Positions 5,724 through 43,524 of a DNA stretch of 64,000 nucleotides are shown here, piece after piece; the stretch's first letter is position 1, and every line of letters starts with the position of its first letter. Origin of the DNA: an uncultured Bacteroidota bacterium (GTDB lineage Bacteria; Bacteroidota; Bacteroidia; Bacteroidales; DTGW01); contig OY969556.1 in the NCBI GenBank assembly GCA_963701015.1, positions 4,025,509 through 4,089,508 on the forward strand. The letters run 5' to 3'. Both the position numbers and the translations under genes were made by a program. Under the pieces are notes generated by a model. The model saw only the letters and a list, made by a program, of their open reading frames with translations, made no database searches and was not told where the DNA came from.

Positions 5724-5915
5724 ATTTCAAACAAAGATAAAAAACATTCACTGAATTAATAAATTTACGTTTGCAATGTTTCTAATCTATAAATAACCCT
5801 TCGCAAACAAGTGTTTAAGTATGGAAACTAAGGGTTGTTGCATGTATTTAAAAAAAATTGTTCTTATACTGATTAATTGTCAAAAAGTATTAAAAATGTA
5901 CCAATTGAAAAACAT
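5563..5915. repeat. direct repeat DR-A, copy 1 (about 350 bp)
   Basis: Near-identical to 9342-9627, with weaker similarity continuing to about 9695. It covers the 5' 160 bp of the MNT gene, its upstream region and a copy of the GT2 gene start. Confidence 0.9.
5819..5845 (-). repeat. duplicated 5' end of the GT2 gene (copy 2 of 3)
   Basis: GTATGGAAACTAAGGGTTGTTGCATGT matches the true start region of the 4166-5110 gene at 5086-5112. A third copy lies at 9599-9627. Confidence 0.9.
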
Positions 5916-6990
5916 TGGGAAAAGTTAACACTTCCCCGCTATTGAGGGTCTATGTCTACAGGGCAAACGCATTAAAAACGACTGTATAGGGTTAATAAAT
6001 AGCATCTTATGGCATGTTTTACTTTTTTACCTCCCTGCCCTCCTTAAAAAGGAGGGTAAACTGAGTTGTGGACTGCGAATATGATCGCCCAGTTATAGCT
6101 CCTTTTAAAGTGGTTGGGGTTAATAAAAAACAAACAAATTTTAATGCGTTTGCCCTGGCTATGTTTATGCACATGTCTCTAAATCCCATATATTTCGCCC
6201 CAATGGGGCTATTAAAATTCATTTATATTATTCTTTAAACATATCATCACTAAGTGTTTTTTAATATTTTATTGGCTCCAGAGGGGTTAAATATTTATAG
6301 ATATAAACAATTATCCTGTTATTCTAGTCCCATGGGGACGAAATATTCAAGATGTGAGTATATCCATGTCTTGTAAAGGGGAGGAAACAAATTTATTTCT
6401 TTCTCCCTCTCCGTTTGGAGAGGGTTGGGGAGAGGTCAAATTCTTTTATTCCTCTTCTTTTTGGCTTGAACCAGTTGGAGGATTAAAGGAAAACGGTGGA
6501 CGGAAAAAGGATTGAAATAATGAGCGAGGGATGTCCACTTTTGAATTTATTCTCCTTCTTTTTGGCTTGAAACCCGAAGGGCTCAACGAAGTTAACCAAA
6601 AAGAAGCAAAACTTAGCGAAGCGTTCTCATGACCGAAGGGAGTAAAGTTCAAGTTTCAAGTTTCCCCTCCTTTTATAAGAACGGCAAAGCCCTCATGACC
6701 GAAGGGAATAACGGGTTGGGGTGGTTCTTAAGGCTCGCGGATGATCGGGCAATTTAACCTCACCCTTTCTCCCTCTCCAAAAGGAGAGGGAATAAAAATT
6801 TGAGTGCTGTCGTTCACGGTTGGTACGATCTGAAAGCCAATCAGCTCGTACAAAAGGGAACCCTCTACGCCAGCTGGGGCAGCTGGCAATGAGAATATCT
6901 AAAATTATTAGGCTCTGGCATACATGGATGGTGCGAGTTTGTTGGTCAGTCAAAGGTACTGACAACATGTTCGTGCCAGTTGGTTGCTAA
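5850..6990. repeat. GC-hairpin mosaic region (modular REP/BIME/BOX-like repeats)
   Basis: A dense series of short palindromic units shared with 20.1-28.6 kb, often in opposite orientation. Examples are CTCCCTCTCC..GGAGAGGGTTGGGGAGAGG and CTTAGCGAAGCGTTCTCATGACCGAAGGGAGT. ORFs here have nonsense-like low-complexity translations. Confidence 0.85.
5959..6157. repeat. 199-bp segment bounded by a perfect 19-bp inverted repeat
   Basis: CAGGGCAAACGCATTAAAA at 5959-5977 pairs with TTTTAATGCGTTTGCCCTG at 6139-6157. The 161-bp interior contains a CCCTCCTTAAAAAGGAGGG hairpin. Confidence 0.85.
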
Positions 6991-7098
6991 ACAGATGTGA
7001 AAATTATTTCTGAATCTTATTAATTTAATTTTTTTGGCTAAAACTAAGACACAGCCGACACATCCGTGCTAGAAAGTGTATTTGTCATCTATTATTTT

Positions 7099-8277
7099 TT
7101 ACTTTATTGATCCACCCCATATAACATTTTCGACATTGCGGGGTGGATGATTGCTTATTATTGTATAATTATTTAACCCGATGTTTTTGGATAATTTAAT
7201 TAATTGTTGCAAATCAGCAGGAGTAGCTGTTTCTTTTACCTCAAAAGCATGACTATTGTTTAAAACAAAATCAATTTCATGCCCGGTTTTCAAGGCATAA
7301 TAATTTAATATACCAAAATGATGCAACTGGTTGTAAATAGCATTTTCAAATAATACCCCACCCGAAACTTTTGCAAGTCGATTCAATATTCCATTGTCGC
7401 AAAAAAACACCTTTTTTGCCTTAACAATTTCACGGTCAGGGTTTTTTGACGTTACCGCAATACGTTGAATAATATAAGTTTTCTCAAACAATTCAATATA
7501 ATTTGTTACGGTTGGCTTAGACAAGCCTGTAAGAGCAGAAATTTTCGCAAAATCGAGTTTGGAAGCAGTACGAGAGGCCAACATGATTAATAAATTTCTT
7601 ATGTTGTTGGCATTCTTAAAATCAGAAAGCCACTTTATATCTATGTTAATGTACGAACTTATTAAATCTTCAAGAATATCTGTTTTTTGATTGATAGCAT
7701 CTGTTAGTACAACTTCGGGCATACCACCGAAATTTAAATATTCATTATAATATCCTTGTAGCCTTTCATAATCGTTTTGCTGAAATACCTGTTTGCTAAA
7801 GTTGAACGGAGTCCACGCAACTGATTTAAAAGTCAGGAATTCACCAAAGTCGAGTGGGTAAAGCTCAAATATTTTTTTCCTACCGGCTAATGATTCCGAA
7901 AAAAGGTTTTTTAAATAGTAAGAGCTCGAGCCTGTAATGATGAATTTAATACTATAATTGTCGTACAAATATTTTACAACGCTCGGCAGGTTTGGTAATA
8001 ATTGAGCCTCGTCAATTGCAATTGCCAATTGAGAGTCAAAATTTATGCCTCGCTGTTTTAGTGCCAATATTATGTTTTCGTAATTCGGGTCATTAAACAA
8101 ATTGCGGTTATCAAGTCGTTCTAAATCAAAATAAACACTGTTGTTTTGAAAATATTCGTCCAGCAATTTTTTTACCAGGGTAGTTTTACCAGTACGTCGT
8201 AAACCTGTAATTATGCTAACTTGTGGTTGTTTGGCATGTTCTACAAGCGCTGCATGTATTTTTCGTTCAAAAAACAT
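7099..8277 (-). CDS. AAA+ ATPase (AAA_14 + DUF4143 type)
   Basis: 392-aa ORF with Walker A (ITGLRRTGKTTL) and the architecture of the widespread DUF4143 ATP-binding proteins. Confidence 0.75.
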   Translation of the reverse strand: MFFERKIHAALVEHAKQPQVSIITGLRRTGKTTLVKKLLDEYFQNNSVYFDLERLDNRNLFNDPNYENIILALKQRGINFDSQLAIAIDEAQLLPNLPSVVKYLYDNYSIKFIITGSSSYYLKNLFSESLAGRKKIFELYPLDFGEFLTFKSVAWTPFNFSKQVFQQNDYERLQGYYNEYLNFGGMPEVVLTDAINQKTDILEDLISSYINIDIKWLSDFKNANNIRNLLIMLASRTASKLDFAKISALTGLSKPTVTNYIELFEKTYIIQRIAVTSKNPDREIVKAKKVFFCDNGILNRLAKVSGGVLFENAIYNQLHHFGILNYYALKTGHEIDFVLNNSHAFEVKETATPADLQQLIKLSKNIGLNNYTIISNHPPRNVENVIWGGSIK

Positions 8278-9695: not shown

Positions 9696-9706
9696 GTGAA
9701 TCTTTT

Positions 9707-9737
9707 CCCCTCCTGGGAGGGGATTGGGGTGGGTTTC
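9707..9737 (+). repeat. hairpin + TTGGGG unit (REP-like)
   Basis: CCCCTCCTGGGAGGGGATTGGGGTGGGTTTC. The same architecture occurs about 20 times in the window. Confidence 0.85.
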
Positions 9738-9759
9738 AATAGAAATTTAGACAAGCATA

Positions 9760-11253: not shown

Positions 11254-11664
11254 AAACTAATCATTAATTTTAATGTTTAATATACGTTATATTATAATTT
11301 TAAATTAGAAACCTCTAAATATACAATTATTCGAATCACTTAAAAATCATTTGGGTAATAAAATGACTTTTTCCGATTACCCACATAATGTAATTTTTTA
11401 TTAAAATACTTGCTAATTCTGACACGGATATGTTGCCATTACATTGTCTTAAAATTCAAGATTCGTTGTAATTTCTTAGTTACGTCGTACTTTTCTTCCT
11501 GCTACTTGCGGTTTAATTACAACAAATATATACTATCCAGCAATTTGATAATGAAAACAACAGCAAATCATTTGCTTTTATTCTTCATCATTTTGGCTTA
11601 GACCAGTCGAAGCACAAATGGAAATTGGTAAACAGAAAAGGGATAGAAATAATGCACGAAGGCT

Positions 11665-11753
11665 GTCCACGGATTGTACGATACGAATGCCAATCTGCAC
11701 GAGCGGCGGTGACATATGCTGAAAGGTTGGCTTTGGGATGGTATATGTGGTGA
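11665..11753. repeat. 89-bp repeat family copy (inverted relative to 20579-20667)
   Basis: GTCCACGGATTGTACGATACGAATGCCAATCTGCACGAGCGGCGGTGACAT... aligns at about 75-80% with the reverse complement of 20579-20667. Confidence 0.75.
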
Positions 11754-12035
11754 CAAGATACTACTTTCAGTTGTGAACTAAGCAATGCTTTCTCAATACC
11801 AAAGGGAGTAATACGCTTCGTTAATTTGAAGGTAGATAGTTTGCATATTTAAGCTCGGCAACCCCGGGCTTTATATATTTTGAAATATTCCTTTACCAGC
11901 AAATAAACACGCAAAATTCGGTTTAAGTGTTATTTTGTTGGTTAAGGCACTTAAAACATTTCAATACCAACTGGTTACCTACTAACTTTTGAATTTCATT
12001 TTATAAGCCAAACTATAATTGCTCCTATTTCAAAG

Positions 12036-15779: not shown

Positions 15780-16550
15780 TTAATTATGAAATATTTTCTT
15801 AAAAAACTTTTTTGAATAATACCAAAATGGGTTTGTCATTAATTTTATCTTCAACTCTTCCATTTCTTCATAATCTTTCAAATAGGTACCGAACTGTTTC
15901 TGCAAAAAAAGTTTCTTTTCATTTTTTATTAGTTCATCATTTGATTGGTATGAGCTTATCCCAGTGTGGTTAAAAACAGTAACTTCGGTATTTACATATT
16001 TATAACTGGCATTTAATATACATACGGTATAAATAAAAAATTCCCAGTCTGATGTAATTTTATTTTGCTCGTTATACGGGTTTCTGTTCAACAATTCTCT
16101 TCTAATTAAGGTAGCCGGATGGGGTAATGTATCTTTTAATAAATAACCAAAAGTAATTAAGGGGGGATAATATTTTATCCATTTTCTCGTACCATCGTCA
16201 ACTAATAAATTTCCGTAAATCAAATCTTTATCATTCCCTCTATTCAGAAGTTTATATAAAGATTCATTGTCAACGAAATAATCGCCACTATTTAAAAAAA
16301 TGCAATATTCCCCAATTGCTTTTGCAATGCCTTTGTTCATGGCATTATAAATTCCCTTGTCGGGTTCGCTTACCCAGTAAGTTATTTTATCAAAATATTC
16401 TTTAATAATATCTATACTTCCATCGGTACTGGCTCCATCAATTATAATATATTCGTAATCGGTAAAAGTTTGAGTAACTACGCTTTCAATAGTTTTGTGA
16501 AGACCAGTGGCATTATTAAGGTTAATAGTTATAATGGAGAGTTTGGGCAT
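15780..16550 (-). CDS. GT2-family glycosyltransferase
   Basis: LSIITINLNNATGL...IIIDGASTDGS motif. Confidence 0.85.
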   Translation of the reverse strand: MPKLSIITINLNNATGLHKTIESVVTQTFTDYEYIIIDGASTDGSIDIIKEYFDKITYWVSEPDKGIYNAMNKGIAKAIGEYCIFLNSGDYFVDNESLYKLLNRGNDKDLIYGNLLVDDGTRKWIKYYPPLITFGYLLKDTLPHPATLIRRELLNRNPYNEQNKITSDWEFFIYTVCILNASYKYVNTEVTVFNHTGISSYQSNDELIKNEKKLFLQKQFGTYLKDYEEMEELKIKLMTNPFWYYSKKFFKKIFHN

Positions 16551-18774: not shown

Positions 18775-20112
18775 TTAAATAGTTTCTGAATTAATCCAAT
18801 CAATTTTTGGCATTATTACACCAGGCCTGTTGTCGGCATATTGTTTGTTAAGTCCATCAATGTTAATAATAGAAAAGGGATATATAACTTTTTCAAAGCT
18901 TATCCATTTTACATTATGTATTCCAATGGCAATATTAATAATATAGGAACCAGGTTTTAAAAAATTTGAAGGAATTATTGCAGTTGATTTATAATTTCCA
19001 ATTTCAAAAGTCTCTGTTCGTATAATATCATCATGAAAAGTTCTGAAAAGTGTAAGCCCACTTTTAGAATCAATTAAATCAAAACCTATTCTTAGCCCAC
19101 TTATTTTTTTCTTTACAAAATATTCATATTCAATAATTATTTCATCTTTTGTATAAAACTCATTAGCATTTGATCCTTTCTGATATATATTTAACTTTTT
19201 AAGTTTAAAATATTCATCATCTGGTAAATTTATTTCTGCCAAAGAATCTCTGCTTTCTTTATTATTATTGGCAGATGATAAATAATATTCAATACCTTCA
19301 TTAACATTACCATTATAAACTGTTGTTCCGTTTTGAAGTACATATAAATTATTGCATAAATTCGCAATAGCAGTCATATTATGGCTCACAAATATAACAG
19401 TTCGGCCTTGTCCCTGGCTTACTTCCTGCATTTTGCCAATGGCTTTTTTCTGGAACTCGGCATCGCCCACGGCCAATACTTCATCAACCACCAATATTTC
19501 CGGCTCCAAATGGGCTGCCACTGCAAAGCCCAGGCGCACGGTCATACCGCTACTGTAACGTTTTACGGGAGTGTCAATGTATTTTGCTACGCCGGCAAAA
19601 TCAACAATTTCGTCCAGCTTCTTGTCAATTTCCCACTTGCGCATGCCCATTATGGTTCCATTCACGTAAATGTTTTCGCGGCCGGTCATTTCGGGGTGAA
19701 AGCCCGTGCCAACTTCCAGTAGGCTGGCAATACGGCCTTTTACTTTTATACTGCCCGTGGTGGGAGAGGTTACCTTGGAGAGTATTTTTAGCAAGGTGCT
19801 TTTACCGGCACCGTTTTTGCCTATAATACCCAGCACTTCGCCCTGCTTAACTTCAAGGTTAATATCCTTTAAAGCCCAAACTAATTCGGCCTCCCCCCTG
19901 CCCCCTCCATGAGAGGGGGAGTTAGCCTTCCCCCCTTTGGGGGGATTGAGGGGGGCTAATATATTTGTCTGCCCTACTTTGGTATAAGGGTCGGGTTGCC
20001 CAAGCAGGTTCATGCGCCACCAGCGGTTAAGGTCGTGGCTAAGCGTGCCGGTGCCTATTTGCCCCAGGCGGTAAAGTTTCGAGAGGTTTTCAATTTTAAT
20101 TACGGTGGACAT
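18775..20112 (-). CDS. wzt: O-antigen/glycan ABC exporter ATP-binding protein Wzt, with a C-terminal glycan-binding-type domain
   Basis: Walker A GKNGAGKSTLLK, signature YSSGMTVRL and Walker B ILVVDE, plus an extra C-terminal domain of about 190 aa. It carries an in-frame GC-rich palindromic insertion at 19888-19956. Confidence 0.85.
   Translation of the reverse strand: MSTVIKIENLSKLYRLGQIGTGTLSHDLNRWWRMNLLGQPDPYTKVGQTNILAPLNPPKGGKANSPSHGGGRGEAELVWALKDINLEVKQGEVLGIIGKNGAGKSTLLKILSKVTSPTTGSIKVKGRIASLLEVGTGFHPEMTGRENIYVNGTIMGMRKWEIDKKLDEIVDFAGVAKYIDTPVKRYSSGMTVRLGFAVAAHLEPEILVVDEVLAVGDAEFQKKAIGKMQEVSQGQGRTVIFVSHNMTAIANLCNNLYVLQNGTTVYNGNVNEGIEYYLSSANNNKESRDSLAEINLPDDEYFKLKKLNIYQKGSNANEFYTKDEIIIEYEYFVKKKISGLRIGFDLIDSKSGLTLFRTFHDDIIRTETFEIGNYKSTAIIPSNFLKPGSYIINIAIGIHNVKWISFEKVIYPFSIINIDGLNKQYADNRPGVIMPKIDWINSETI
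19888..19956. repeat. REP-like double-hairpin unit inserted in frame within wzt
   Basis: CCCCCTC-catga-GAGGGGG and CCCCCC-ttt-GGGGGG followed by ATTGAGGGGGG. On the coding strand it is translated as ILAPLNPPKGGKANSPSHGGGRGEAE. Confidence 0.8.
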
Positions 20113-20775
20113 TGTGTAAATTACAAATTACAAAGGACAATTTGCAAAATTAGCGAATTTATACCAAAACGGAAAATGAAAAAGGGAAAAGGCCTCTCCC
20201 CAACGCTACTCCCTTCGGTCGTGAGAACGCTGCGCTTAGTTCTCCCAAGGAGAGGGAGAAAGATAAAAAATAATTTCTTAAAGTCCCTTTCTTTAGGAAA
20301 GGGTTGGGGATAGGCTACTTTAAAGAGCGGTGGCCAGATCATCCGCGTAAGCCAGCGTTGGCTTTGAGCGAGGGGTTTCGGATGATCTTGAATTTTACTC
20401 CCTTCGGTCATGAGAACGCTTCGCTAAGTTTTGCTTCTTTTTGTGTCAAGACAAAAAGAAGAGGAATAAAAGAAATTGGCCTCTCCCCAGCCCTCCCCTA
20501 AGGAGAGGGAGAAAGATAAAAAATTGTGAATTTACTTTTCTTTGCCTGCCATACATAGAAAAGGTAACAAAAGAAAAATCACTACGGATACCATCCCCAA
20601 GCCAATCTATTCGCACATGCCACCGCCACTTGTGCCGATTGGCTTTCGGATCGCACTATCCGTGGACGTCAACGCGCAAAGCAATTTAATGAATTATCTT
20701 CTTATCATGCGAAGCATGAAAGAGTGTGAGCCAGATCATCCGCGCGAGCCAGTGTTGGCTTTGAGCGAGGGGTAT
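20113..20775. repeat. GC-hairpin mosaic region upstream of wzt
   Basis: Contains a vestigial heptamer tract (20166-20192), the GATCATCCG...CGGATGATC long hairpin (twice), the 32-bp mini-insert (20208-20239, 20397-20428), hairpin+TTGGGG units and the 89-bp repeat (20579-20667). Confidence 0.85.
20145..20164 (-). promoter_or_regulatory. conserved promoter-like box (TAATTTTG on the coding strand), 33 nt upstream of the wzt ATG
   Basis: The plus strand reads CAAAATTAGCGAATTTATAC, so the coding strand carries TAATTTTG, which matches the Bacteroidota -7 consensus TAnnTTTG. The box recurs upstream of 5 other starts. Confidence 0.55.
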
Positions 20776-20841
20776 AGTTTCGAGAGGTTTTACCTTCGGT
20801 GAGAACGCTTCGCTTAGTTCAATTTTAATTACGGTTGACAT
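20776..20841 (-). pseudogene. duplicated 5' end of wzt (38 bp of CDS) interrupted by a 28-bp mini-insertion
   Basis: AGTTTCGAGAGGTTTT[ACCTTCGGTGAGAACGCTTCGCTTAGTT]CAATTTTAATTACGGTTGACAT compared with the uninterrupted 20075-20112. Confidence 0.9.
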
Positions 20842-20887
20842 TGTGTTAATTACAAATGACTAATTACTAATTACAAATTACAATTTA

Positions 20888-20907
20888 CAAAATTAGCGAA
20901 ATTATAA
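20888..20907 (-). promoter_or_regulatory. conserved promoter-like box copy
   Basis: CAAAATTAGCGAAATTATAA, 47 nt upstream of the relic wzt start. Confidence 0.45.
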
Positions 20908-20908
20908 T

Positions 20909-21141
20909 AAAACGGAAAATGGTTGGCGGAAAACGGTAAACGGAGTAAGGTAAAAGGGTAAACGGAGAAGGGAGAACGGAAAACGGTTGGCGGAAAACGG
21001 AAGAAGGGGAAAGGAAAACGGAAAACGGGGAATGGAGGAAGGAGGACGGAAAACGGTAAACGGAAAACGGTAAACGGAGAAGGGAAGACGGTAAACGGAG
21101 AAGGGAGAATGGAGGAAGGAAAACGAGGAATGGAGGAAGGA
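20909..21141. repeat. purine-rich heptamer minisatellite, array 1 (about 33 units)
   Basis: GGAAAAC/GGTAAAC/GGAGAAG/GGAGAAC units stay in a continuous 7-bp phase, with one 8-bp slip. Confidence 0.9.
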
Positions 21142-22565: not shown

Positions 22566-22598
22566 TAGGTAGTATTTTTTTTAACACTTTACCAATTA

Positions 22599-22618
22599 CA
22601 AAATTAGTGAATTTATAA
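22599..22618 (-). promoter_or_regulatory. conserved promoter-like box copy
   Basis: CAAAATTAGTGAATTTATAA, 34 nt upstream of the AlbA_2 ORF start. Confidence 0.5.
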
Positions 22619-22902
22619 TAAAACGGAAGACGGTAAACGGAGAAGGGAAAACGGAGAAGGGAGAACGAAAAACGGAGAATGGTAAACGGAGAAGGGAAAA
22701 CGGAAAACGAGGAATGGTAAACGGAGAAGGGAGAACGGAAAACGGAAAACGAAAAACGGAGAATGGTAAACGGAGAAGGGAGAACGGAAAACGGAAAACG
22801 GAAAACGGGGAATGGAAAACGGAGAAGGGAGAACGGAAAAAGGGAAACGGAGAAGGGAAATCGAAAAACGGAAAAGGGAAAACGGAGAAAGGAAAACGAG
22901 GA
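22619..22902. repeat. purine-rich heptamer minisatellite, array 2 (about 40 units)
   Basis: Same heptamer family, with a 49-bp higher-order repeat (GAGAATGGTAAACGGAGAAGGGAGAACGGAAAACGGAAAACGAAAAACG). Confidence 0.9.
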
Positions 22903-23099
22903 TAATTTTTTAAAAATTAGGGCAAAATTTCAAAATTATGCAAATTCGTATTCCACACTATTTACAGGTATTTGTCATCATTTACTTTAATTAAAAATAT
23001 CTATAGCTTTTTCAATTAAATAGGCTTTTATCTCTTCTTCATTAACAGCCGGTACAATATATTCAACAGGCTCGGAGTAATCAATGTCATTAAAATAGG

Positions 23100-23603
23100 C
23101 TAACTGGCACTGAATTGTTTCTCGGAAAATAAATCATTGTATATAGTTAAGGCCTTTTCTGAAACTTGTTTAATGGAATAAAATTTTCTTAAAATAAAAT
23201 ATAAATCAACATAATCTTTCCATTTCGATCGTCTGCTCATGGCAAATGCCTTCATAGCAGCTAATGTTAATAAATCAGGCATTTTTAAATACCCCTCAAA
23301 TTCACACGACGCAATTATTTGATAAGGGTACTGAAAAAAAGTAAATTTTACATCTTGAATAGTTACATTTAGCTGTTCATAAACCCTTCTGTTAACAATA
23401 TACTTTTTATGTAACGAATCAATCTTTTTAAGCAACCTTTTAGGTTGGATTTCATTTTGTTTAAACAAATCAAAATCAATAGATCTTCTATGGCCAATGT
23501 GTAATGCAATAGCAGTTCCTCCAACAAGATAAAATTCTCTTTTAAACAATTTCACCAATGGCAATAATTCTAATTGATCAGTATTTAAAATTTCTTTATG
23601 CAT
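23100..23603 (-). CDS. AbiEii/AbiGii-type nucleotidyltransferase toxin-like protein (3' end frameshifted)
   Basis: LVGGTAIALHIGHRRSIDFDLF motif. A further 37 codons (QLAYFNDIDYSEPVEYIVPAVNEEEIKAYLIEKAIDIFN*) continue in another frame down to 22987. Confidence 0.65.
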   Translation of the reverse strand: MHKEILNTDQLELLPLVKLFKREFYLVGGTAIALHIGHRRSIDFDLFKQNEIQPKRLLKKIDSLHKKYIVNRRVYEQLNVTIQDVKFTFFQYPYQIIASCEFEGYLKMPDLLTLAAMKAFAMSRRSKWKDYVDLYFILRKFYSIKQVSEKALTIYNDLFSEKQFSAS

Positions 23604-23871
23604 ATCGTGAGAAAAGAATAAAAAAGTAATTATAAATTTCAGGAAAGAAATTCATTTTCTTCCTACCTTGCATATTATTAAACACTTTTGCCACGTTTTC
23701 AATACCCATTATTGAAAAAAGTTTATGCACTGCATCTAATGAGCCATAATTTAAAATGTGTTCTACCAATAATTCGTGGCTTATATTCTCCTTTTCTTTT
23801 TCGGGTGTGTACCAAAAAAGGGAGCTGTTTTGGCGTATAAATGCTTTTAGTTCTTCAGTATTTTCAGGCAT
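23596..23871 (-). CDS. small partner protein of the AbiEii-like gene (putative antitoxin)
   Basis: 91-aa ORF overlapping the downstream NTase gene by 8 nt. Confidence 0.45.
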   Translation of the reverse strand: MPENTEELKAFIRQNSSLFWYTPEKEKENISHELLVEHILNYGSLDAVHKLFSIMGIENVAKVFNNMQGRKKMNFFPEIYNYFFILFSRYA

Positions 23872-23898: not shown

Positions 23899-24194
23899 CT
23901 AAAATATACTTGTAAACATTTTATATAAGGTAATTTTGCCTGCCCCGTTACGGCCAGTTATGCCCACACGGTCGTTTGTTTTATTTCAAAATTTAAATCC
24001 TTTAAAGCCCAAAAATCTTCCATTTCATCGTTGGCAATAAGCTGTCCGCCTTTAAATATTTGGCGGGTTTTAGATGCTATTTGCCGGACTTTATTGGCCA
24101 GAACATCGCGCAAAGCGGTATAACGCTCGTGCTTTTCGTGGCCTATAATATAACTTTTGCCCAGGTTCTCGGCTTTAATTACTGTATGGCTCAT
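23899..24194 (-). pseudogene. relic of a second, divergent wzt/tagH-type ABC ATPase gene (N-terminal about 90 codons, frameshifted and truncated)
   Basis: Encodes MSHTVIKAENLGKSYIIGH...FWALKDLNFEIKQ, then after a 1-nt shift DRVGITGRNGAGKITL (Walker A). Homology ends where the AbiE-like pair begins. Confidence 0.85.
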
Positions 24195-24240
24195 GAAGAC
24201 AATTACTAATTACTTATCACAAATGTCAAATGACAATTTG

Positions 24241-24260
24241 CAAAATTAGTGAATTTATAA
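24241..24260 (-). promoter_or_regulatory. conserved promoter-like box copy
   Basis: CAAAATTAGTGAATTTATAA, 47 nt upstream of the relic wzt' ATG. Confidence 0.5.
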
Positions 24261-24280
24261 CAAAACAGAAAATTGTAGTC

Positions 24281-24550
24281 GGAAGACGGAGAAGGGAAAA
24301 AGGTGGACGGAAAACGGAAAACGGAGAATGGAAAACGGAGGATGGTGGACGGAAAACGGAGAAGGGAAAACGGAAAACGGAGAATGGTAAACGGAGAAGG
24401 GAGAATGGTAAACGGAGAAGGGAGAATGGTAAACGGAGAAGGGAGAATGGTAAACGGAGAAGGGAGAACGGAAAACGAAAGACGGAGAATGGTAAACGGA
24501 GAAGGGAGAACGGAAAACGGAGAAAGGAAAACGGAAAACGGGGAAGAGAA
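24281..24550. repeat. purine-rich heptamer minisatellite, array 3 (about 38 units)
   Basis: Includes 3 perfect copies and 1 near-perfect copy of the 21-bp unit GGTAAACGGAGAAGGGAGAAT at 24386-24469. Confidence 0.9.
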
Positions 24551-24835
24551 ATAATATTTGTGAGATTGTTGTAATTTGAAACCCACCCTTTAGCCCCTCC
24601 CGGGAGGGGAAATATTTTTTCGTATCACACAAAGTGTGAAAGAGCGATGGCTTGATCATCCGAGCGAGCCTTAAGAACCACCCATTAGCCCCTCCTTTAA
24701 AAGGAGGGGAAACTGATTTGTTAACTTTACTCGACTTCGTCTAATGAACTAAGCGAAGCGTTCTCACGAGTTTTACGAGTAGCTTAGCCTTTGGCGTTCT
24801 CACGACCAAAGGGAATAAATCGCTTCGCTTAGACA
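24551..24835. repeat. conserved 285-bp GC-hairpin block (copy a)
   Basis: Collinear with 28126-28410, and partly with 26221-26345 and 21142-21215. It contains CCCCTCCCGGGAGGGG, TCACAC-aaa-GTGTGA, GATCATCCG... and CCCCTCCTTTAAAAGGAGGGG. Confidence 0.9.
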
Positions 24836-25400
24836 GCCCGCAGCTGAAATTGTATTTTTTTTATCACACTTTGTGTGAAAGAGCGTGAACCAGATCATCC
24901 GCGCGAGCCAGCGTGGGCATTGAGCGAGGGGTTTCGGATGATCTTGAATTTTACTCCCTTCGGTCATGAGAACGCTTCGCTAAGTTTTGCTTCTTTTTGG
25001 TTCATGCCAAAAAGAAGGGGAATGAATGCAAAAGATTTGCTGTTGTATTTATTATATGCAATGTTGGCTAGTAGCGATTTATTTTTCTTTGCTTGCCATG
25101 CAAAGAAAAGGTAACAAAACTTAGCGATATGGTTTACTCACTGTGGTCATGAGAACGCGTTGCTAAGTTCATGAACGAAGGGAGCAAAGGGGTTGGGGAT
25201 AGGCCTTTTGGCTTTCGGACCGCACCATCTGTGGACTCCCTACGCGCAAAGCTCAAAACTCTTTACAGTTTACAACCATTTACCGTTAACCGTTTTCCTT
25301 TTATCCGTCAAATGGTTCAAGCCAAAAATAAGAGGAATGCTGGAAAAAGCTTTATTTGTAAATTAAAATCAGCTTTAACCGCCTATCGAGGAAATGAAGT
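24836..25400. repeat. GC-hairpin mosaic region
   Basis: Same modules as 20113-20775, in similar order. Confidence 0.85.
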
Positions 25401-25426
25401 TGAATTTAACCATTTTCCCATTATTG

Positions 25427-25877: not shown

Positions 25878-25905
25878 AACAATTTAGATATTGTTTGACA
25901 AAACT

Positions 25906-25925
25906 CAAAATTAGCGAATAAAATA
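25906..25925 (-). promoter_or_regulatory. conserved promoter-like box copy (proximal)
   Basis: CAAAATTAGCGAATAAAATA, 29 nt upstream of the DUF4160 ATG. Confidence 0.5.
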
Positions 25926-25968
25926 ACTTATTGCCAATGACTAATTACTGATTATAAATGATAATTTT

Positions 25969-25988
25969 CAAAATTAGCGAATTTATAA
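25969..25988 (-). promoter_or_regulatory. conserved promoter-like box copy (distal, tandem)
   Basis: CAAAATTAGCGAATTTATAA, directly abutting array 4. Confidence 0.45.
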
Positions 25989-25989
25989 T

Positions 25990-26222
25990 AAAACGGAAAA
26001 AGGGAAACGCAGTAAGGAAAAAGGGAAAACGGAGAAGGGAGAAGGGAGAAAGGAAAACGGGAAAGGAAAACGGAAAACGGAAGACGGAAGACGGAAAACG
26101 GGGAATGGAGAATGGTAAACGGAGAACGGAAAACGGAAGACGGAAGACGGAGAAGGGAAAACGGAAGACGGAAGACGGAGAACGGAAAAAGGAAAAAGGA
26201 AAATGGAAAACGGGGAAGAGAA
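25990..26222. repeat. purine-rich heptamer minisatellite, array 4 (about 33 units)
   Basis: Same heptamer family (GGAAGAC, GGAAAAC, GGAGAAG ...). Confidence 0.9.
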
Positions 26223-26900
26223 ATAATATTTGTGAGATTGTTGTAATTTGAAACCCGCCCCAACCCCTCCCGGGAGGGGAAATATTTTTTCGTATCACAC
26301 GAAGTGTGAAAGAGCAGCGGCCGGATCATCCGCGCGAGCCAGCGTTGGCTTTTAGCGAGGGGTTTCGGATGATCTTGAATTTTTGCTTCTTTTTGGTTCA
26401 GGCCAAAAAGTAGAGGAATAAATGAAATTGGCCTCTCCCCAGCCCTCTCCTAAAGAGAGGGAGTAGGAAAGTATTAAAAAATTTGGTGCAAAATAAATTA
26501 TTTCATAAAACTTCTTTCTTTTGGAACTTAGCGAAACGGTCTCATGACCGAAGTGAGTAAAGGGGTTTGGGATAGGCACTTTGGCTTTCAGATCGCACTA
26601 TCCGTGGACGACAGCGCGCAATACTCAAGACTTTTAACTGTATAAAACCATTTACCATTCACCGTTTTCCTTTTATCTGTCAAATGGTTCAAGACAAAAA
26701 GAAGAGGAATAAAATTTAGGAGAATTGTGCTCTCAATCCCCCAGCCCCCTTTTCAAAGGGGGAAAGCCCTGCTTTACAGTATAAAACCATTTACCTTTCT
26801 CCGTTTTCCTTTTATCCGTCAAATGGTTCAGGCCAAAAAGTAGAGGAATGCAAAGCTTTTGTAATACGCGTTTAAACTATCTTCATGAACGAAGTGTATA
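26223..26900. repeat. conserved hairpin block (copy b) plus GC-hairpin mosaic
   Basis: 26223-26345 matches 24553-24670. It is followed by an empty site for the 32-bp mini-insert (T-run 26380-26384), hairpin+TTGGGG units and two AACCATTT...AAATGGTT units. Confidence 0.85.
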
Positions 26901-26967
26901 AACTCGTACAAGTTGGACATTATGTATAAATCACTAACATCTATCAACAAGCAACTTACAACCTCTT

Positions 26968-27837
26968 TTATACGGTATCAATAAAACTTCTTTCAGTACG
27001 GTTAAAGATAATTATACCTAAAAACAAAACCACCAGGGTAAAAACTGTAGTGTATATTATCCCGGTTGAACTATGGGTGCCTGAACCCAGGAATCCGTAT
27101 TTAAATGTTTCTAAAATTGGTGTCATAGGATTAGCCATAATGAAAGGGCGTAATTTGCCATGAATCATAGAAACAGGGTAAATTACAGGGGTTGCATACA
27201 TAAGTAATTGAACTCCAAATGTTATAAGAAATGTCAGGTCGCGGTATTTAGTTGTTAGCGAAGTGAAAATAATCCCGAATCCCAAGCCAAGTCCACCCAT
27301 CAATAAAATAAGATACGGTGTTAACAACATATAAATATTGGGATGAATTGACAAATTGTGTTTTAATAAATAATAAATAAATACAGCTAAAAACAAACCA
27401 AATTGGATGCCAAATTTTATTAATCCCGATAAAACTTTTGACATTGGTGAAACAAGCCTTGGGAAATAGACCTTACCAAAAACATTGGCATTATCGGTAA
27501 ATGTCTTAGATGTTATACTAAAGCATTCTGAAAAATAATTCCAAACAATAATACCTGCAAGATAGAATAGCATCATGGGAATACCATCGGTAGGCATTTT
27601 GGCAATATTACCGAAAACCACAATATATATAGCCGTGGTTAAAATAGGTTGAAGTATAAACCAAATTGGACCAAGAACGGTTTGTTTATAAACCGTAACA
27701 ATGTCACGTTTAACAAACATGGTAAGTAAGTCACGATACTGCCAAATTTCTTTCAGGTTAATATCGAGAAGATGTTTCTTAGGCTGTATTATTTGAGTCC
27801 ATTGCTCTTCCGTAGTATTAAATTTTTCTTCGGGCAT
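26968..27837 (-). CDS. wzm: ABC-2 type glycan/O-antigen exporter permease Wzm
   Basis: 289-aa ORF with 6 predicted TM segments and a typical N-terminus (...EIWQYRDLLTMFVKRDIVTVYKQTVLGPIWFILQP). Confidence 0.85.
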   Translation of the reverse strand: MPEEKFNTTEEQWTQIIQPKKHLLDINLKEIWQYRDLLTMFVKRDIVTVYKQTVLGPIWFILQPILTTAIYIVVFGNIAKMPTDGIPMMLFYLAGIIVWNYFSECFSITSKTFTDNANVFGKVYFPRLVSPMSKVLSGLIKFGIQFGLFLAVFIYYLLKHNLSIHPNIYMLLTPYLILLMGGLGLGFGIIFTSLTTKYRDLTFLITFGVQLLMYATPVIYPVSMIHGKLRPFIMANPMTPILETFKYGFLGSGTHSSTGIIYTTVFTLVVLFLGIIIFNRTERSFIDTV

Positions 27838-27886
27838 TCTATTTTAAATTACCTATTACAAATGATTGTTAACAAATGATAAATTG

Positions 27887-27906
27887 CAAAATTAAGGAAA
27901 TTAAAC
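27887..27906 (-). promoter_or_regulatory. conserved promoter-like box copy
   Basis: CAAAATTAAGGAAATTAAAC, 50 nt upstream of the wzm ATG. Confidence 0.5.
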
Positions 27907-27918
27907 CAAATCTGACAA

Positions 27919-28125
27919 TGGAAAAGGGAGTTCGGAAAACGGAAGACGGAAAAGAGAGAAGGGAAGTCAATTACAAATTACGAATGACAAATTGGAAAAC
28001 GGAAAACGGAAGACGGAAGACGGAGAAGGGAAAACGGATAAGGGAAATCAATGACAAATTACAAATTACGGATGACAAATTGGAAAACGGAAGACGGAGA
28101 AGGGAAAACGGAGAACGGGAAAAAG
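27919..28125. repeat. heptamer minisatellite, array 5 (about 29 units, interleaved with A/T heptamers)
   Basis: GGAAAAC/GGAAGAC/GGAGAAG runs are interrupted twice by ATTACAA-ATTACGA-ATGACAA type heptamers, in the same 7-bp phase. Confidence 0.9.
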
Positions 28126-28410
28126 AAATAAGATTTGTGAGAGGGGTGTAATTTGAAACCCACCTCAACCGCTTCCGGGAGGGGAAATAATTTTTCGTAT
28201 CACACGAAGTGTGAAAGAGCGCGAGCCTGATCATCCGCGCGAGCCTTAAGAACCACCCCTTAGCCCCTCCTTTTAAAGGAGGGGAAACTGATTTGTTAAC
28301 TTTACTCGACTTCGTCTCATGAACTAAGTGAAGCGTTCTCACGAGTTTTACGAGTAACTTAGCAACGCGTTCTCACGACCAAAGGGAGTAAAACGCTTCG
28401 CTAAGTTCTA
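28126..28410. repeat. conserved 285-bp GC-hairpin block (copy c)
   Basis: Collinear with 24551-24835. Confidence 0.9.
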
Positions 28411-28639
28411 AGGGAGAAAAGCCTTGCCTTACAATATAAAACCATTTACCGTTCACCGTTTTTCTTTTATCCGTCAAATGGTTCAAGCCAAAAAGAAGAG
28501 GAATGTTAGCAAAAGCTTTAATACTTTATTGGTATGGAATTTATTTTTTATTTTGTAACACACGCTAGTAGTGTCACCACAGCTACTATCAGTTGATGCT
28601 TTGTACGTAATGCAAATTAATTTCCACTCCCGGGAAGGG

Positions 28640-29770: not shown

Positions 29771-29942
29771 AGTTTCATTTATTATTCAACAAATATAATA
29801 CAAAAAGTGTATGGTACAAAAAGTGTATGGTACAAAAAGTGTCTTTATAAAATTTGTGGAATAGTAAAAGGTTTAATACAATAAAAAAATAGGGCAAAAA
29901 ATTCAATATTTCTGTAATATATAGAAAGGCAGGGAAAGTAAT

Positions 29943-30485
29943 TTATTTATTGATAAGTATTTCTGAATTCTCAACAAAATTCGATTCCTGGATTCGTCTT
30001 AAACTTGAAGGGTGTATTTCTACCAGCAAAGATTGATTAATTGCATCGATTTGCAATAATGCTCTTTTCTTTCCTTTGTAAGTTACTAATGTACCACAGA
30101 ATCCGGTTAAAGCACCGCGATAGACTTCTACCATCTCCCCGTATTCAAATAAATCATAGCTAACTTCAAATTTCTCTGTAGATTTTAAAAGCATTTTCAG
30201 GAATTCAATTTGATAGTCGGGTATTTTTGCCGGTTGAAATTCGAAGGATACAAAACCCGCAACACCGTCAATTGCTCTTACAATATGATATTTCTTATAG
30301 TTGGTGCGAACAAAAACATACGATCGGAATAAAGGCATTTCAACCATTTTTTTTCTGTCATGCCACTGGCGAAGGGTTTTTTGTAATGGCAAATAGGCTT
30401 CAATGCCATGCTCACATAACCGGGCATAAGCAACCTTCTCACTTCGCGACCGCACATAAATTGCATACCAATGAAGTTGCAACAT
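29943..30485 (-). CDS. UpxY-family (NusG/RfaH-like) transcription antiterminator
   Basis: WYAIYVRSRSEKVAYARL...PLFRSYVFVR plus a C-terminal KOW-like region. The ATG at 30485 is preferred over the longer ORF. Its position at the head of the glycan locus fits the family. Confidence 0.8.
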   Translation of the reverse strand: MLQLHWYAIYVRSRSEKVAYARLCEHGIEAYLPLQKTLRQWHDRKKMVEMPLFRSYVFVRTNYKKYHIVRAIDGVAGFVSFEFQPAKIPDYQIEFLKMLLKSTEKFEVSYDLFEYGEMVEVYRGALTGFCGTLVTYKGKKRALLQIDAINQSLLVEIHPSSLRRIQESNFVENSEILINK

Positions 30486-30637
30486 ATAACTAATTTTGGG
30501 GATGGTAAATATAAGTAATAATGTGCTGATTTGCCAATGAAACAATGCGCCAATGATTAAGTAGTAATTGAATTAGGATATAGAAAATTCGCTTACTGTT
30601 ATCATTTTAATTTACAATTAGTGCATTAGCAAATTGT

Positions 30638-41333: not shown

Positions 41334-43524
41334 ATGGTTACTAAGGAAGATCAGTCGCTGCTTGAATATTTGAAGAAATATTTTGGGTTCTCCAGTTTTA
41401 AAGGAAATCAGGAAGCAATTATTCACAATGTGCTAGAAGGGAATGATACTTTTGTACTTATGCCAACAGGCGGAGGGAAATCATTGTGTTATCAGTTACC
41501 GGCTTTACTATTGGAAGGTACAGCTGTAATTATTTCTCCACTTATTGCCTTAATGAAAAATCAGGTTGATGCTATGCGCAGCTTTAGCGAGGAAGATGGA
41601 ATTGCACATTTTATGAATTCGTCTTTAACTAAAGCCCAGATAAATAAGGTTAAAGAAGATATTCTGTCAAAAAAAACCAAGCTATTGTATGTTGCGCCTG
41701 AGTCGTTAACGAAAGAAGAAAATATTCAATTTTTAAAACAAGTTGTTGTTTCTTTTTATGCAGTCGATGAGGCCCATTGTATATCAGAATGGGGGCATGA
41801 TTTCAGACCTGAATACAGGCGTATTCGGCCAATTATTAATCAAATAGCTAACGCTCCAATTATGGCGCTTACTGCAACAGCTACGCCAAAGGTACAAAGC
41901 GATATTCAAAAAACACTTGAAATGCTTGATGCCAAAGTGTTTAAATCTTCGTTTAACAGACCTAATTTATACTATGAAATAAGGCCAAAAATTGAAGCTT
42001 CAAAACAAATTATAAAATATATAAAAAATAACCACAACAAATCAGGAATAGTTTATTGCTTAAGCCGCAAAAAGGTTGAGGAACTTACTGAATTGCTGCA
42101 AGTGAATGGAATAAGGGCTTTGCCTTATCATGCGGGAATGGATGCAACTACACGTGCCACTAACCAGGATAAATTTCTGATGGAAGAAGCCGAAGTTATT
42201 GTTGCCACTATTGCATTTGGAATGGGAATTGATAAACCCGATGTAAGATTTGTTATTCATTACGATATTCCAAAAAGCCTTGAAGGATATTACCAGGAAA
42301 CAGGCCGTGCCGGTCGCGATGGTGGTGAAGGCCAGTGTATAACTTTTTACCGTTATCAGGATATTCAAAAGCTTGAAAAATTTATGCAGGGTAAACCGGT
42401 TGCTGAACAGGAAATTGGTAAACAATTGCTGCTCGAAACGGTTTCGTATGCTGAAACATCTCTTTGCCGGAGACGTTTTCTCTTGCATTACTTTGGAGAA
42501 ATATACGACCGTGAAAATTGCGAATGTTGCGACAATTGCGTTCACCCAAAAGTACAATTCGATGGTAAGGAATATGTTTTGCAGGTGCTGGAATGTGTGC
42601 TTGCTGTAAAAGAAAAATTTAAATCAGAACATATTGCCAACGTTTTGGCGGGGAATCTTAATACAGCAATTAAATCATACAAACACAACAAGCTCGAAAT
42701 ATTCGGTGCTGGAGGCGAAAAGAATGTGAAATTTTGGAATGCTGTTATAAGGCAAATGCTGGTTTCGCAATTGTTGCTAAAAGATATTGAAAATTACGGA
42801 CTTTTAAGATTGTCAGAAGCCGGGCTTAAATATTTAGATAACCCGGAAACACTCATGCTTTCGGAGGACCGATGATTATGAAGTTGAAAATGATGAAGAA
42901 CAAACCGTAGCCCTTTCAAAAACAACAACGGTTGACGAAGAGCTTTTGCACATTTTAAAAGATTTACGAAAGAAAATTGCCAAACAGAAGAACCTGCCGC
43001 CTTTTGTAATTTTTCAGGATCCTTCGTTGGAAGATATGGCCATCCAATACCCAATCAATAATGAAGAACTGCAAAATATTGTAGGCGTAGGTACCGGTAA
43101 AGCTCAAAGATATGGAAAGGAGTTTACTGAAATTATTAAAGCCTATGTTGAGGAAAAAGAAATAATCAGGCCTCAGGATATGGTGGTTAGGTCGGTTGTG
43201 AATAAATCGGGAATGAAAGTGTTTATTATTCAAAGCATCGACCGTAAAATGAACCTCGAAGATATTGCTTCGTCTAAAGGAATTACTTTAAATGACTTAT
43301 TGACCGAAATAGAAGCCATTGTTAACAGTGGAACGAAGCTGAATATCGATTATTATATTGATGAAATTTTAGACGAAGAACACCAGCAGGAAGTTTACGA
43401 CTATTTTCGCGAAGCTGAATCGGAATCTGTTGCCGATGCTTTAGCTGAATTAGGCGATGATGAATATTCCGAAGAAGATTTACGGTTAATGCGAATTAAG
43501 TTTCTGTCGGAAATGGGCAATTAA
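41334..43524 (+). pseudogene. recQ: ATP-dependent DNA helicase RecQ, interrupted by a +1 frameshift near 42870-42875
   Basis: ORF 41334-42875 holds the helicase core plus the RQC/Zn motif (CRRRFLLHYFGE...CCDNC). ORF 42946-43524 holds the HRDC region. Reading frame 2 is open from 42838 and gives ...DYEVENDEEQTVALSK...LHILKDLRKK. Confidence 0.8.

Follow-up and report, generated by a model that had tools for sequence, protein, structure and literature searches.

This report concerns five arrays of tandem 7-nt repeats within a polysaccharide locus of an uncultured Bacteroidota bacterium (Bacteroidales; DTGW01), carried on a 64,000-nt stretch of contig OY969556.1 (assembly GCA_963701015.1, positions 4,025,509 to 4,089,508 of the forward strand) which is referred to as the window. 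Repeats of this unit length are familiar from the STRR repeats of cyanobacteria, which form a heptanucleotide repeat class. Among long simple sequence repeats (SSRs), heptanucleotide repeats form the most numerous class in the majority of prokaryotic genomes, and polymerase slippage has been given as their cause (Mrazek et al. 2007, summarised in PMC4679880). Like the members of this class, which are sporadic across phyla, the window arrays are head-to-tail, spacer-less and intergenic, with a copy number far above chance; they differ in being degenerate, among the longest seen (207–284 bp) and clustered; most arrays found in our own scan are built of a single unit. We regard them as belonging to this known class, and the regulatory or contingency role suggested by the original prediction, which was made from the letters alone, is not supported by their architecture. 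To a class of bacterial repeats that is functionally unexplained they add a long, degenerate and purine-rich example.

Two described heptamer families allow a closer comparison. The TAACTGA heptamers of Beggiatoaceae, Cyanobacteria and some Bacteroidetes are intergenic, with up to 43 copies in Bacteroidetes (MacGregor 2015, PMC4679880). As in the window, other heptamer families occur alongside, and their short sets, placed a few nucleotides ahead of start codons, resemble the AT-type heptamers TGTAATT and AGTAATT found here in the 5' leader; the unit sequence is different, however, and the long arrays of the window lie upstream of a promoter-like box and not beside the start codon. In Xanthomonas and Nostoc, the G-rich GGGNATC repeats are preferentially four units long, and their G3-4 tracts fold into G-quadruplexes (Rehm et al. 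2015, PMC4692102). They are located near the ends of open reading frames (ORFs), on the non-coding strand when upstream, and are tied neither to surface genes nor to contingency genes (PMC4692102). These too are strand-asymmetric, G-containing heptamers with the same geometry to ORFs as the window arrays, which differ in possessing GG tracts only and in running to 30–40 units.

Two further systems bear on how such arrays might function or move. The homogeneous (ATCTTTC)n tract of the hmw genes of Haemophilus influenzae forms part of the transcribed 5'-untranslated region (5'-UTR), its length inversely setting expression via a hairpin processed by RNase III (PMC12721329). BrickBuilt, an element of Porphyromonas gingivalis, is built of imperfect 23-nt units in variable number, is bounded by small terminal inverted repeats and occupies 19 dispersed sites (Klein et al. 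2015, PMC4596501).

The best overall explanation for the window arrays, to which we assign a probability of about 60%, is that they are slippage-grown passengers on a reiterated promoter module from the region upstream of wzt. The origin and architecture contained in this explanation are held with considerably more assurance and are very probably as proposed; that the arrays lack a sequence-specific function is what we infer. The arrays do not code for protein, are specific to the lineage, evolve fast and are physically linked to a promoter module that has been duplicated, and the explanation is carried by their anatomy, by the paralogy of the modules, by the turnover of the array interiors and by the absence of arrays from close relatives. 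The module would consist of the array, some 20–30 nt of conserved sequence, the -7 box TAATTTTG and a leader rich in A and T, to which the opening codons of wzt are attached in some copies, and its source would be the native wzm–wzt intergenic region. Accessory cassettes (DUF4160/DUF2442, wzt'-AbiEi/AbiEii and AlbA_2), together with debris resembling MITEs (miniature inverted-repeat transposable elements), would have accreted between wzm and wzt, each event leaving or regenerating one copy of the wzt upstream region, and it is because of this accretion that the module would be present six times. One ancestral array would have been copied, each copy then being reshaped independently by replication slippage or unequal exchange to give private 14-, 21-, 35- and 49-bp higher-order units, so that the edges would be old and degenerate and the cores young and homogenised. 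The five-fold clustering within 7 kb would arise because the arrays ride on the duplicated module. Clustered arrays can thus come from duplication of a carrier module, and selection for a switch is not required.

Direct reading of the sequence and Tandem Repeats Finder (period 7 and multiples) place five heptamer arrays where the original prediction had located them:

20909..21141, plus strand: array 1, about 32 heptamers, 85% purine, one +1 slip
22619..22902, plus strand: array 2, about 40 heptamers, zero phase slips, 49/35-bp higher-order units
24281..24550, plus strand: array 3, the array singled out for study, about 38 heptamers, zero phase slips, 21-bp unit ×4
25990..26222, plus strand: array 4, about 32 heptamers, two single-base slips, without a higher-order period
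27919..28125, plus strand: array 5, three GGA-type blocks interleaved with the AT-type heptamers AATTACA/AATGACA

A search of the window for GGNRAAN ×3 with at most one mismatch gave 122 matches against 0.05 expected from dinucleotide shuffles, and those within the arrays were all on the plus strand. By phase parse each array is 207–284 bp long and contains 30–40 degenerate heptamers of the form GG[A/T/G]RAA[C/G/T]. Six unit types (GGAAAAC, GGAGAAG, GGTAAAC, GGAAGAC, GGAGAAC and GGAGAAT) make up 64% of the 163 units; G1, G2 and A6 are nearly invariant, and positions 3, 4 and 7 are variable. The plus strand had been described as about 85% purine, and the values for arrays 1–5 are 85%, 87%, 87%, 89% and 80%. 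It had further been stated that the 7-bp phase holds almost without slips and runs on into the leader. Arrays 2 and 3 each keep a single phase, and arrays 1 and 4 slip by one base at one or two places; continuation into the leader makes no testable claim across differing unit types, and the blocks of array 5 are themselves mutually offset (88-bp period, 12 × 7 + 4).

The higher-order structure differs from array to array. In array 3 the 21-bp unit GGTAAACGGAGAAGGGAGAAT occurs at 24386–24469 as three perfect copies and one with T>C, with lag identity peaks at 21, 42 and 63; the 3 × 21 nt is the longest perfect repeat in any array. Array 2 has a super-period of 49 (and 35) bp, its lag identity being 0.84 at 49 versus 0.71 at 7. 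In array 1 the 14-mer GGAAAAC GGTAAAC is duplicated (21048–21075), and lag-identity analysis of arrays 1 and 4 gave no super-period. Array interiors are not alignable to one another, the unit vocabulary is common to all, and edges are common to arrays 3 and 4 (...GGAAAAC GGGGAAG AGAAATA) and to arrays 1 and 2 (...GGAAAAC GAGGA). Arrays 3, 4 and 5 also have the same distal edge (...GGAAAAC GGGGAAG AGAAATAATATTTGTGAGATTGTTGTAATTTGAAACCC), leading into a tail of 100 nt. Common edges and vocabulary with private interiors are the usual signature of shared-ancestor arrays turning over. The recent expansion that had been claimed is borne out, for each array has perfect higher-order units found in no other, whereas its edges and the leaders are diverged; since the leaders are only about 80–90% alike, the 21-bp triplet is younger than the module duplications.

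Logan short-read contigs of run ERR11718638 match the window at 100% identity, covering the initial 105 nt of array 5 as well as 75 nt at the start of array 2, and end inside the repeats; interior unit counts are those of the long assembly alone. What bears on length variation is a single genome together with a single short-read run from the same sample; exact-protein look-ups gave Logan contigs of that sample only. No array was found to hold four or more tracts of at least three G, the units carrying GG, with GGG only at some unit joins. G-quadruplex and H-DNA readings were dropped, there being only GG tracts and no mirror symmetry.

Between array and start codon lies a leader, CAAAATTAGYGAATTTATAAYAAAAC (plus strand), present in five copies at two or fewer mismatches and one diverged copy; there is none elsewhere in the 64-kb window. 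The leaders of arrays 1–5 are as follows:

20842..20913, minus strand: leader 1, -7 box TAATTTTG at 20895->20888, then an AT-heptamer 5' leader
22566..22624, minus strand: leader 2, -7 box at 22606->22599
24195..24280, minus strand: leader 3, -7 box at 24248->24241
25878..25994, minus strand: leader 4, -7 box at 25976->25969, second partial box at 25913->25906
27838..27918, minus strand: leader 5, the most diverged, -7 box at 27894->27887

TAnnTTTG is the -7 promoter consensus of Bacteroidota, established from Bacteroides and Flavobacterium promoters. The box TAATTTTG, read on the sense strand, fits this consensus, is invariant in 6/6 leaders and is located 36–57 nt before the start codons. 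The motif is in use in this genome: among the other window genes with an upstream gap, an exact sense TAnnTTTG stands 30–65 nt before the ATG in 10/30, against a background of roughly 1 per kb on each strand. Upstream of the box, the first clear GG unit begins after 19–33 nt, at about -31 and outward, and the arrays do therefore lie upstream of promoter-like sequences, as had been predicted. The leader-to-leader spacing (1711, 1642, 1728 and 1918 bp; leader starts 20862, 22573, 24215, 25943 and 27861) is near constant despite wholly different cargo. No TAnnTTTG box is conserved on the plus strand of the leaders, and a plus-strand array transcript was for this reason dropped. Arrays 3 and 4 are followed by a hairpin with a T-run on the plus strand, antisense to all genes; a consensus scan for terminator-like sites overall revealed no enrichment (15 versus 11.5).

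Every gene between 18.7 and 31.6 kb, as identified with Pfam, is on the minus strand, and the sense strand of the arrays is accordingly pyrimidine-rich, reading (GTTTTCC)n. In order of transcription the region begins with a NusG/UpxY-like gene (29943–30545) and an ATPase_2 gene, followed by array 5 with its leader and wzm. Array 4 and its leader precede DUF4160 and DUF2442; array 3 and its leader, a wzt' fragment, an AbiEi-like gene and AbiEii. Array 2 and its leader are followed by a gene with AlbA_2, HATPase_c_4 and HTH domains, and array 1 with its leader by an 8-codon wzt stub and repeat debris. The series ends with a vestigial array and leader, the intact wzt, and methyltransferase, acyltransferase and glycosyltransferase genes. 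The start codons are 54–113 nt downstream of the arrays in the sense direction: array 1 is 68 nt upstream of the wzt stub, array 2 54 nt upstream of the AlbA_2/HATPase_c_4 gene, which is frameshifted (also in the short-read contig), array 3 87 nt upstream of the wzt' fragment, which breaks off past the Walker A motif, array 4 113 nt upstream of the DUF4160/DUF2442 pair and array 5 82 nt upstream of wzm. The statement that the arrays front glycan-export genes is consequently true of 2/6 modules only, those of wzm and wzt; the remaining modules precede DUF4160/DUF2442, the truncated wzt fragment with AbiE, the frameshifted AlbA_2 gene and the 8-codon wzt stub. The other features of the region are:

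26968..27837, minus strand: wzm (ABC-2 permease; Pfam)
18775..20112, minus strand: intact wzt (ABC_tran and Wzt_C; Pfam), with an in-frame palindromic insertion at about 19882–19987
23910..24194, minus strand: wzt' fragment, from a second allele of wzt, comprising its initial ~95 codons and ending just past the Walker A motif
23596–23871, minus strand: AbiEi-like gene, after the wzt' fragment
about 22990–23603, minus strand: AbiEii gene, after the wzt' fragment
20818..20841, minus strand: wzt'' stub (MSTVIKIE), then a MITE-like module, a junction that occurs twice in the relative L221
20145..20192, plus strand: sixth, vestigial module, leader core and 3–4 heptamers (GGAAAAT GAAAAAG GGAAAAG)
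28410..28505, plus strand: D5 module, a short inverted heptamer run (TTTACCG TTCACCG TTTTTCT TTTATCC on the plus strand)
25244–25339, 26616–26711 and 26755–26850: other copies of the D5 module
24547..24646, 26219–26316 and 28122–28221, plus strand: tail shared by arrays 3, 4 and 5

The shared tail is made up of AGAAATAATATTTGTGAGATTGTTGTAATTTGAAACCC, a hairpin of CCCCTCCCGGGAGGGG with AAATATTTTTT, and a CACAC..GTGTG hairpin; array 1 has a diverged tail. The D5 copies are complementary to the arrays and lie about 90–350 nt past the upstream stop codon. The vestigial sixth module fronts the intact wzt, and MITE-like modules follow. Since wzt retains a leader with only 3–4 units, the array would appear dispensable for the promoter of the intact gene. 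The nearest named homologs of Wzm are from Bacteroidales, and a protein sorted by the type IX secretion system (Por_Secre_tail), encoded elsewhere in the window, puts the organism within Bacteroidota.

The locus was compared with those of relatives, in which Wzm is 79–83% identical and such arrays are lacking. In L223 and L224 (Wzm 79% identical) the order is NusG-like gene, wzm and wzt with a wzm–wzt gap of 92 nt, and in L226 (81%) the same genes are present with a gap of 60 nt; none has arrays. The L223 spacer TTTTTAATTTGCAATTGGTAATTTGTCATTGG resembles the window leader CGCTAATTTTGCAAATTGTCATTTGTAATT, which points to the leader being the native promoter and 5'-UTR of wzt. L221 (83%) contains an AlbA_2 gene and debris between wzm and wzt.

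Duplicated wzt starts are not peculiar to the window. The window has three of them, each with a leader, at 24194 (~95 codons), 20841 (8 codons) and 20112 (full length). The junction of wzt codons 1–8/9 with a MITE-like module is found here (20818–20841, minus strand/20686–20817) and twice in L221 (8463–8545 and about 15931–16013), the peptides MSTVIKIE and MTQTVIKIE being fused to the module (translated LSEA.SPKVKPL...). L230 has the order wzt' (100 aa)-AbiEi-AbiEii-wzt, and in L229 at least four wzt starts come after wzm, interrupted at 12, ~20, ~90 and 12 codons, with a small cassette behind each. Between wzm and wzt of L232 there are 4–5 toxin–antitoxin (TA) cassettes of PIN/MazE type and a wzt fragment. 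The wzt' fragments of the window (23910–24194, minus strand), L229 (10001–10275) and L230 (166–468) lose homology to full-length wzt within a few nucleotides of each other, just past the sequence coding for the Walker A motif GxNGAGKSTLLK; beyond this breakpoint the cargo is AbiEi/AbiEii in the window and also in L230, and in L229 it is a cassette of DUF2281 type. Shared breakpoints with differing cargo suggest a site-preferring insertion process in wzt, the 5' part of which is therefore a recurrent insertion point.

The wzm–wzt interval of this type of ABC-transporter polysaccharide locus thus gathers co-oriented TA and defence cassettes in at least four independent lineages, and what it leaves behind are wzt 5' fragments that recur, breakpoints that are shared and promoter junctions that are reiterated. 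A literature search yielded no relevant account of TA cassettes between wzm and wzt. We consider this cassette hotspot a more valuable lead than the repeats themselves.

Intact wzt has an in-frame C-rich palindromic insertion of about 100 nt (at about 19882–19987; protein ...APLNPPKGGKANSPSHGGGRGEAE...) which is absent from L223 and L226. The same wzt linker in L223 carries an in-frame heptamer run, (AACAACT) ×3.9 (L223 11118–11144).

Period-7 repeats do occur in two of the relatives, in other sequences. In L229 the heptamers TGATTTC/AAATCAN and ACTCACA form eight arrays at 6.5–11.4 kb versus none at 0–6.4 kb, with the two orientations adjacent and forming imperfect palindromes. L232, which is of higher GC, has eight arrays of GTGAGGG/CCCTCAC at 0–7.9 kb versus none at 10–18 kb; G-rich GTGAGGG/GTTAGGC follow stop codons and the complements CCCTCAC/GCCTAAC precede start codons (runs at 1343–1408, 1762–1831, 3576–3658, 6729–6848 and 7856–7891). 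The L232 units GTTAGGC/GCCTAAC would fit the integron core-site consensus GTTRRRY/RYYYAAC. The wzt' fragments of L230 and L231 are without heptamers, and repeats are therefore not obligatory.

Rho-loading (rut) tracts are long, C-rich, G-poor stretches of unstructured, untranslated RNA. The sense strand of arrays 1–4 contains 38–42% C, 8–9% G, 44–50% U and 2–7% A (C/G ratio 4.2–5.3), as against a window average of 16% C and 16% G. The minimum free energy (MFE) predicted for the sense RNA of these arrays is 0.0 kcal/mol over 233–284 nt; control segments gave -17.9 ± 3.2 kcal/mol per 100 nt. Arrays 1–4 accordingly have the composition (C-rich and G-poor over at least 70–80 nt) and the low structure of rut sites, and like these they are untranslated and past a stop codon, although the resemblance is purely compositional. 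Were transcription to read through out of the preceding cassette, the RNA would present an ideal tract for Rho loading before the next promoter, or alternatively would pair with the short purine heptamer run past the upstream stop codon; in modelled read-through transcripts the arrays pair with the D5 heptamer runs at 25236–25298, 26648–26674, 26787–26809 and 28442–28475. A polar or insulating effect would be the most probable one, because the sense RNA is C-rich, G-poor and A-poor with zero predicted structure. That such an effect is real and selected is possible but doubtful.

Similar arrays were sought more widely in a generic six-heptamer scan of 185,579 genomes, the figures for which refer to the matches listed (loci L001–L168). 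These arrays come from many phyla, including several metagenome-assembled genomes of Bacteroidota, and are mostly single-unit; only three are of 175–301 bp, and sister genomes are absent among the matches listed. With the purine strand taken as plus, the flanking genes of the 84 intergenic arrays listed are +|- in 33, -|- in 25, +|+ in 20 and -|+ in 6. The array is nearer the ORF on its purine-strand 5' side (median 33 versus 100 nt; 62/84, p = 1.5e-5). The GGNRAAN arrays listed tend to start 17–24 nt (median) past a stop codon, with the purine strand as sense, and are rare between divergent genes (6/84). The window arrays are of the -|- class. Arrays with the same vocabulary but the opposite orientation to the genes were found between co-directional genes (L027) and in a dprA–ispG spacer (L201). 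An array-specific 20-mer matched 48 loci in metagenomes, a few of them with similar arrays (L201/L214, L197, L185/L192, L208 and L187). The similar arrays of L201/L214, those of the dprA–ispG spacer, are in an unrelated setting and opposite orientation, and the strand relative to genes is therefore not conserved.

Several points weigh against the explanation of the arrays as passengers on a duplicated promoter module. Five of the six arrays fall within 207–284 bp despite differing interiors, and so narrow a range could mean selection on length rather than neutral drift. The period-7 repeats of L229 and L232, unrelated in sequence, are confined to the cassette zone, and heptamers at the cassette junctions of two independent lineages hint at a mechanistic link between heptamer tracts and such junctions, to which we give a slim chance. 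The leader box is assigned as a promoter by its motif, and a canonical -33 TTTG at the usual spacing is absent from the leaders. A promoter-like site, TTCAAA-18-TATTAT, is present upstream of arrays 3 and 4 and TAATTTTG also occurs upstream of array 2, so that the arrays might be transcribed leaders. As for the insulating effect, the Rho-loading idea is plausible by analogy of composition, and the similar purine-rich arrays of L027 and L201 are oriented opposite to their genes. The module search, finally, covers 64 kb of a 4.47-Mb contig.

Of the alternatives, one would regard leader, array and tail as a composite mobile element, a BrickBuilt-like MITE with an outward promoter inserted before unrelated genes. 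The plan fits that of BrickBuilt in P. gingivalis, segments of which have promoter activity (PMC4596501): both are from Bacteroidales, always intergenic, and consist of a leader, a spacer-less array of imperfect repeats and a tail (here a leader in 6/6 modules and a tail in 3). The leader is, moreover, fused to four different genes (wzt, AlbA_2, DUF4160 and wzm) in surroundings that are a mosaic of dispersed MITE-like modules, which also occur at 6390–6840 and 11548–11836. The window unit is, however, 7 nt, and the copies are local and tied to the wzt upstream region, all six lying within 8 kb (20.1–28.2 kb) with none in the other 56 kb. Terminal inverted repeats were not found around modules 2–4, and an 11-nt AT-rich match in module 5 is the only exception to their absence, which weakens the simple MITE idea. 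The leader is homologous to a relative's native wzm–wzt spacer and was matched neither in viral contigs nor among the 220 loci examined, and the wzt codons of three copies fit duplication of the target region better than transposition. We judge a composite element to be unlikely.

A similarly small chance attaches to the view that the arrays are part of an undescribed cassette-accretion system of Bacteroidota polysaccharide loci acting at fixed points in the wzt 5' end (codons 8–12 and post-Walker A). Integron cassette arrays, and tandem accretion of integrative elements at a target gene, are known systems. The window resembles them in its co-oriented small cassettes, mostly of TA or defence type, each bounded by a repeated junction with a wzt fragment, and in the post-Walker A breakpoint common to three lineages. 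As in accretion of cis-mobilizable element (CIME) type, inserts in the window, L229, L230 and L221 are flanked by direct repeats holding a wzt fragment, and independent lineages have the same insertion point. The differences are that no integrase was seen among the ORFs scanned, nor any attC-type palindromes, that each cassette has its own promoter-like leader, and that there are at least three kinds of breakpoint. In an accretion system each cassette would bring or regenerate a junction of heptamer repeats, portable promoter and wzt 5' end, and the heptamer tracts would be recombinogenic or attC-like sites, Rho-loading insulators, or both. Were a dedicated mechanism of this kind to operate, it would amount to an integrase-less or trans-acting cassette system targeting a conserved export gene, and the heptamer tracts would become testable as junction or insulator elements.

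The arrays themselves might also serve as the recombination substrate, as sites or fragile DNA for capture of cassettes at the wzt 5' end, either attC-like or through template switching. This would suit the confinement of period-7 arrays to the cassette zones of three lineages (window, L229 and L232), the inverted sets of unit and complement in L229, the G-rich post-stop and C-rich pre-start arrays of L232, the putative fit of the L232 units GTTAGGC/GCCTAAC to GTTRRRY, and the fact that an array bounds each cassette. The window arrays are, however, strand-asymmetric and cannot fold (MFE 0), and their units (GTTTTCC, CTTCTCC and the like) do not fit GTTRRRY. Mappable breakpoints are in wzt codons (8 and post-Walker A) or in the leader, none being in arrays, and the wzt' fragments of L230 and L231 lack heptamers. 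The Pfam scan of window ORFs of at least 120 aa, which covered all but a few of them, revealed no recombinase, integrase, transposase or reverse transcriptase; attC core sites at cassette boundaries were likewise not seen in the window. We rate this role as rather improbable.

The analogy with hmw drawn by the original prediction would make the arrays a contingency or graded-expression locus in which slippage in unit number tunes transcription or mRNA processing downstream. The unit is 7 nt with visibly recent expansion, the sense units are pyrimidine-rich like ATCTTTC of hmw1A/hmw2A, the locus makes surface polysaccharide, and a complementary purine run (D5) on the same transcript recalls the hairpin of the hmw repeat with its G-rich arm. 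The architecture does not match: the hmw tract is homogeneous and within the 5'-UTR, whereas the window units are degenerate, with a longest perfect tract of 3 × 21 nt, and stand upstream of the invariant -7 box (about -31 outward), hence probably not between promoter and start codon, although weaker promoter-like sites are present upstream of arrays 2–4. In that position the arrays could gain or lose units with both promoter spacing and the 5'-UTR unaffected. Only wzm and wzt qualify as surface genes, the intact wzt is nearly array-less, and 4/6 modules drive accessory or decayed genes; the relatives are without arrays, and D5 partners are missing for arrays 1 and 2. A switch of the hmw type is thus improbable, and the case is a caution that a 7-bp repeat close to a promoter need not be a contingency locus.

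Still less probable is a protein-binding platform, in which a DNA- or RNA-binding protein would coat the array cooperatively, per 21-bp face or per single-stranded heptamer. Bacillus subtilis CspB binds T-rich heptamers, one protein per heptamer (MacGregor 2015, PMC4679880), a precedent for the sense units GTCTTCC, GTTTTCC and similar, and the near-invariance of GG at positions 1–2 and A at 6, with variation at 3, 4 and 7, is what a binding site might show. Slippage homogenisation explains the invariant positions equally well. The 21-bp periodicity that had been put forward in favour of cooperative binding is private to array 3, array 2 having 49/35 bp and array 4 none, and there is therefore no common protein-binding register from 21 bp. 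No candidate binding protein is linked to the arrays, relatives are without them, and other lineages use unrelated heptamers at like junctions.

That the arrays encode repetitive peptides or are long-read errors, as stop-free ORFs of 83–134 aa crossing array 3 on both strands and the long-read style of the assembly might suggest, can practically be dismissed, since the 7-nt unit rotates the reading frame with several frames open on both strands, the array-3 ORF gave only four chance matches (over-called arrays of other genomes) among 5.8 billion proteins, and part of arrays 2 and 5 is matched at 100% identity by short-read contigs. The same protein search returned no further copies of leader and array.

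Outside the arrays, the window at 20193–20817, 24551–25426, 26223–26967 and 28126–28639 is densely packed with a mosaic of short modules, many palindromic, that are dispersed and also found at 6390–6840, 9704–9739 and 11548–11836. One such module is GATCATCCG...CGGATGATC around a GCCA..TGGC hairpin, and others are CCCCTCCCGGGAGGGG and TACTCCCTTCGGTCATGAGAACGCTTCGCTAAGTT; one occurs in L221 as a perfect 34-bp ×3.3 tandem (4299–4409). An Rfam search of 17–32 kb (Evalue mode) gave no match. A perfect 16-bp tandem, TACAAAAAGTGTATGG ×2.8, is present at 29799–29842 between the UpxY/NusG-like and ATPase_2 genes. Among the glycosyltransferase genes, the segment at 5400–8277 contains a nucleotidyltransferase gene (NTP_transf_2/Polbeta), an AAA_14/DUF4143 ATPase gene and MITE-like debris, and is a second accessory insertion zone of the same polysaccharide locus. 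RecQ is split over two ORFs on the plus strand, 41334–42875 (helicase and RQC) and 42946–43524 (HRDC and HTH), for which a pseudogene, a frameshift from long-read sequencing and a genuinely split gene are the candidate explanations.

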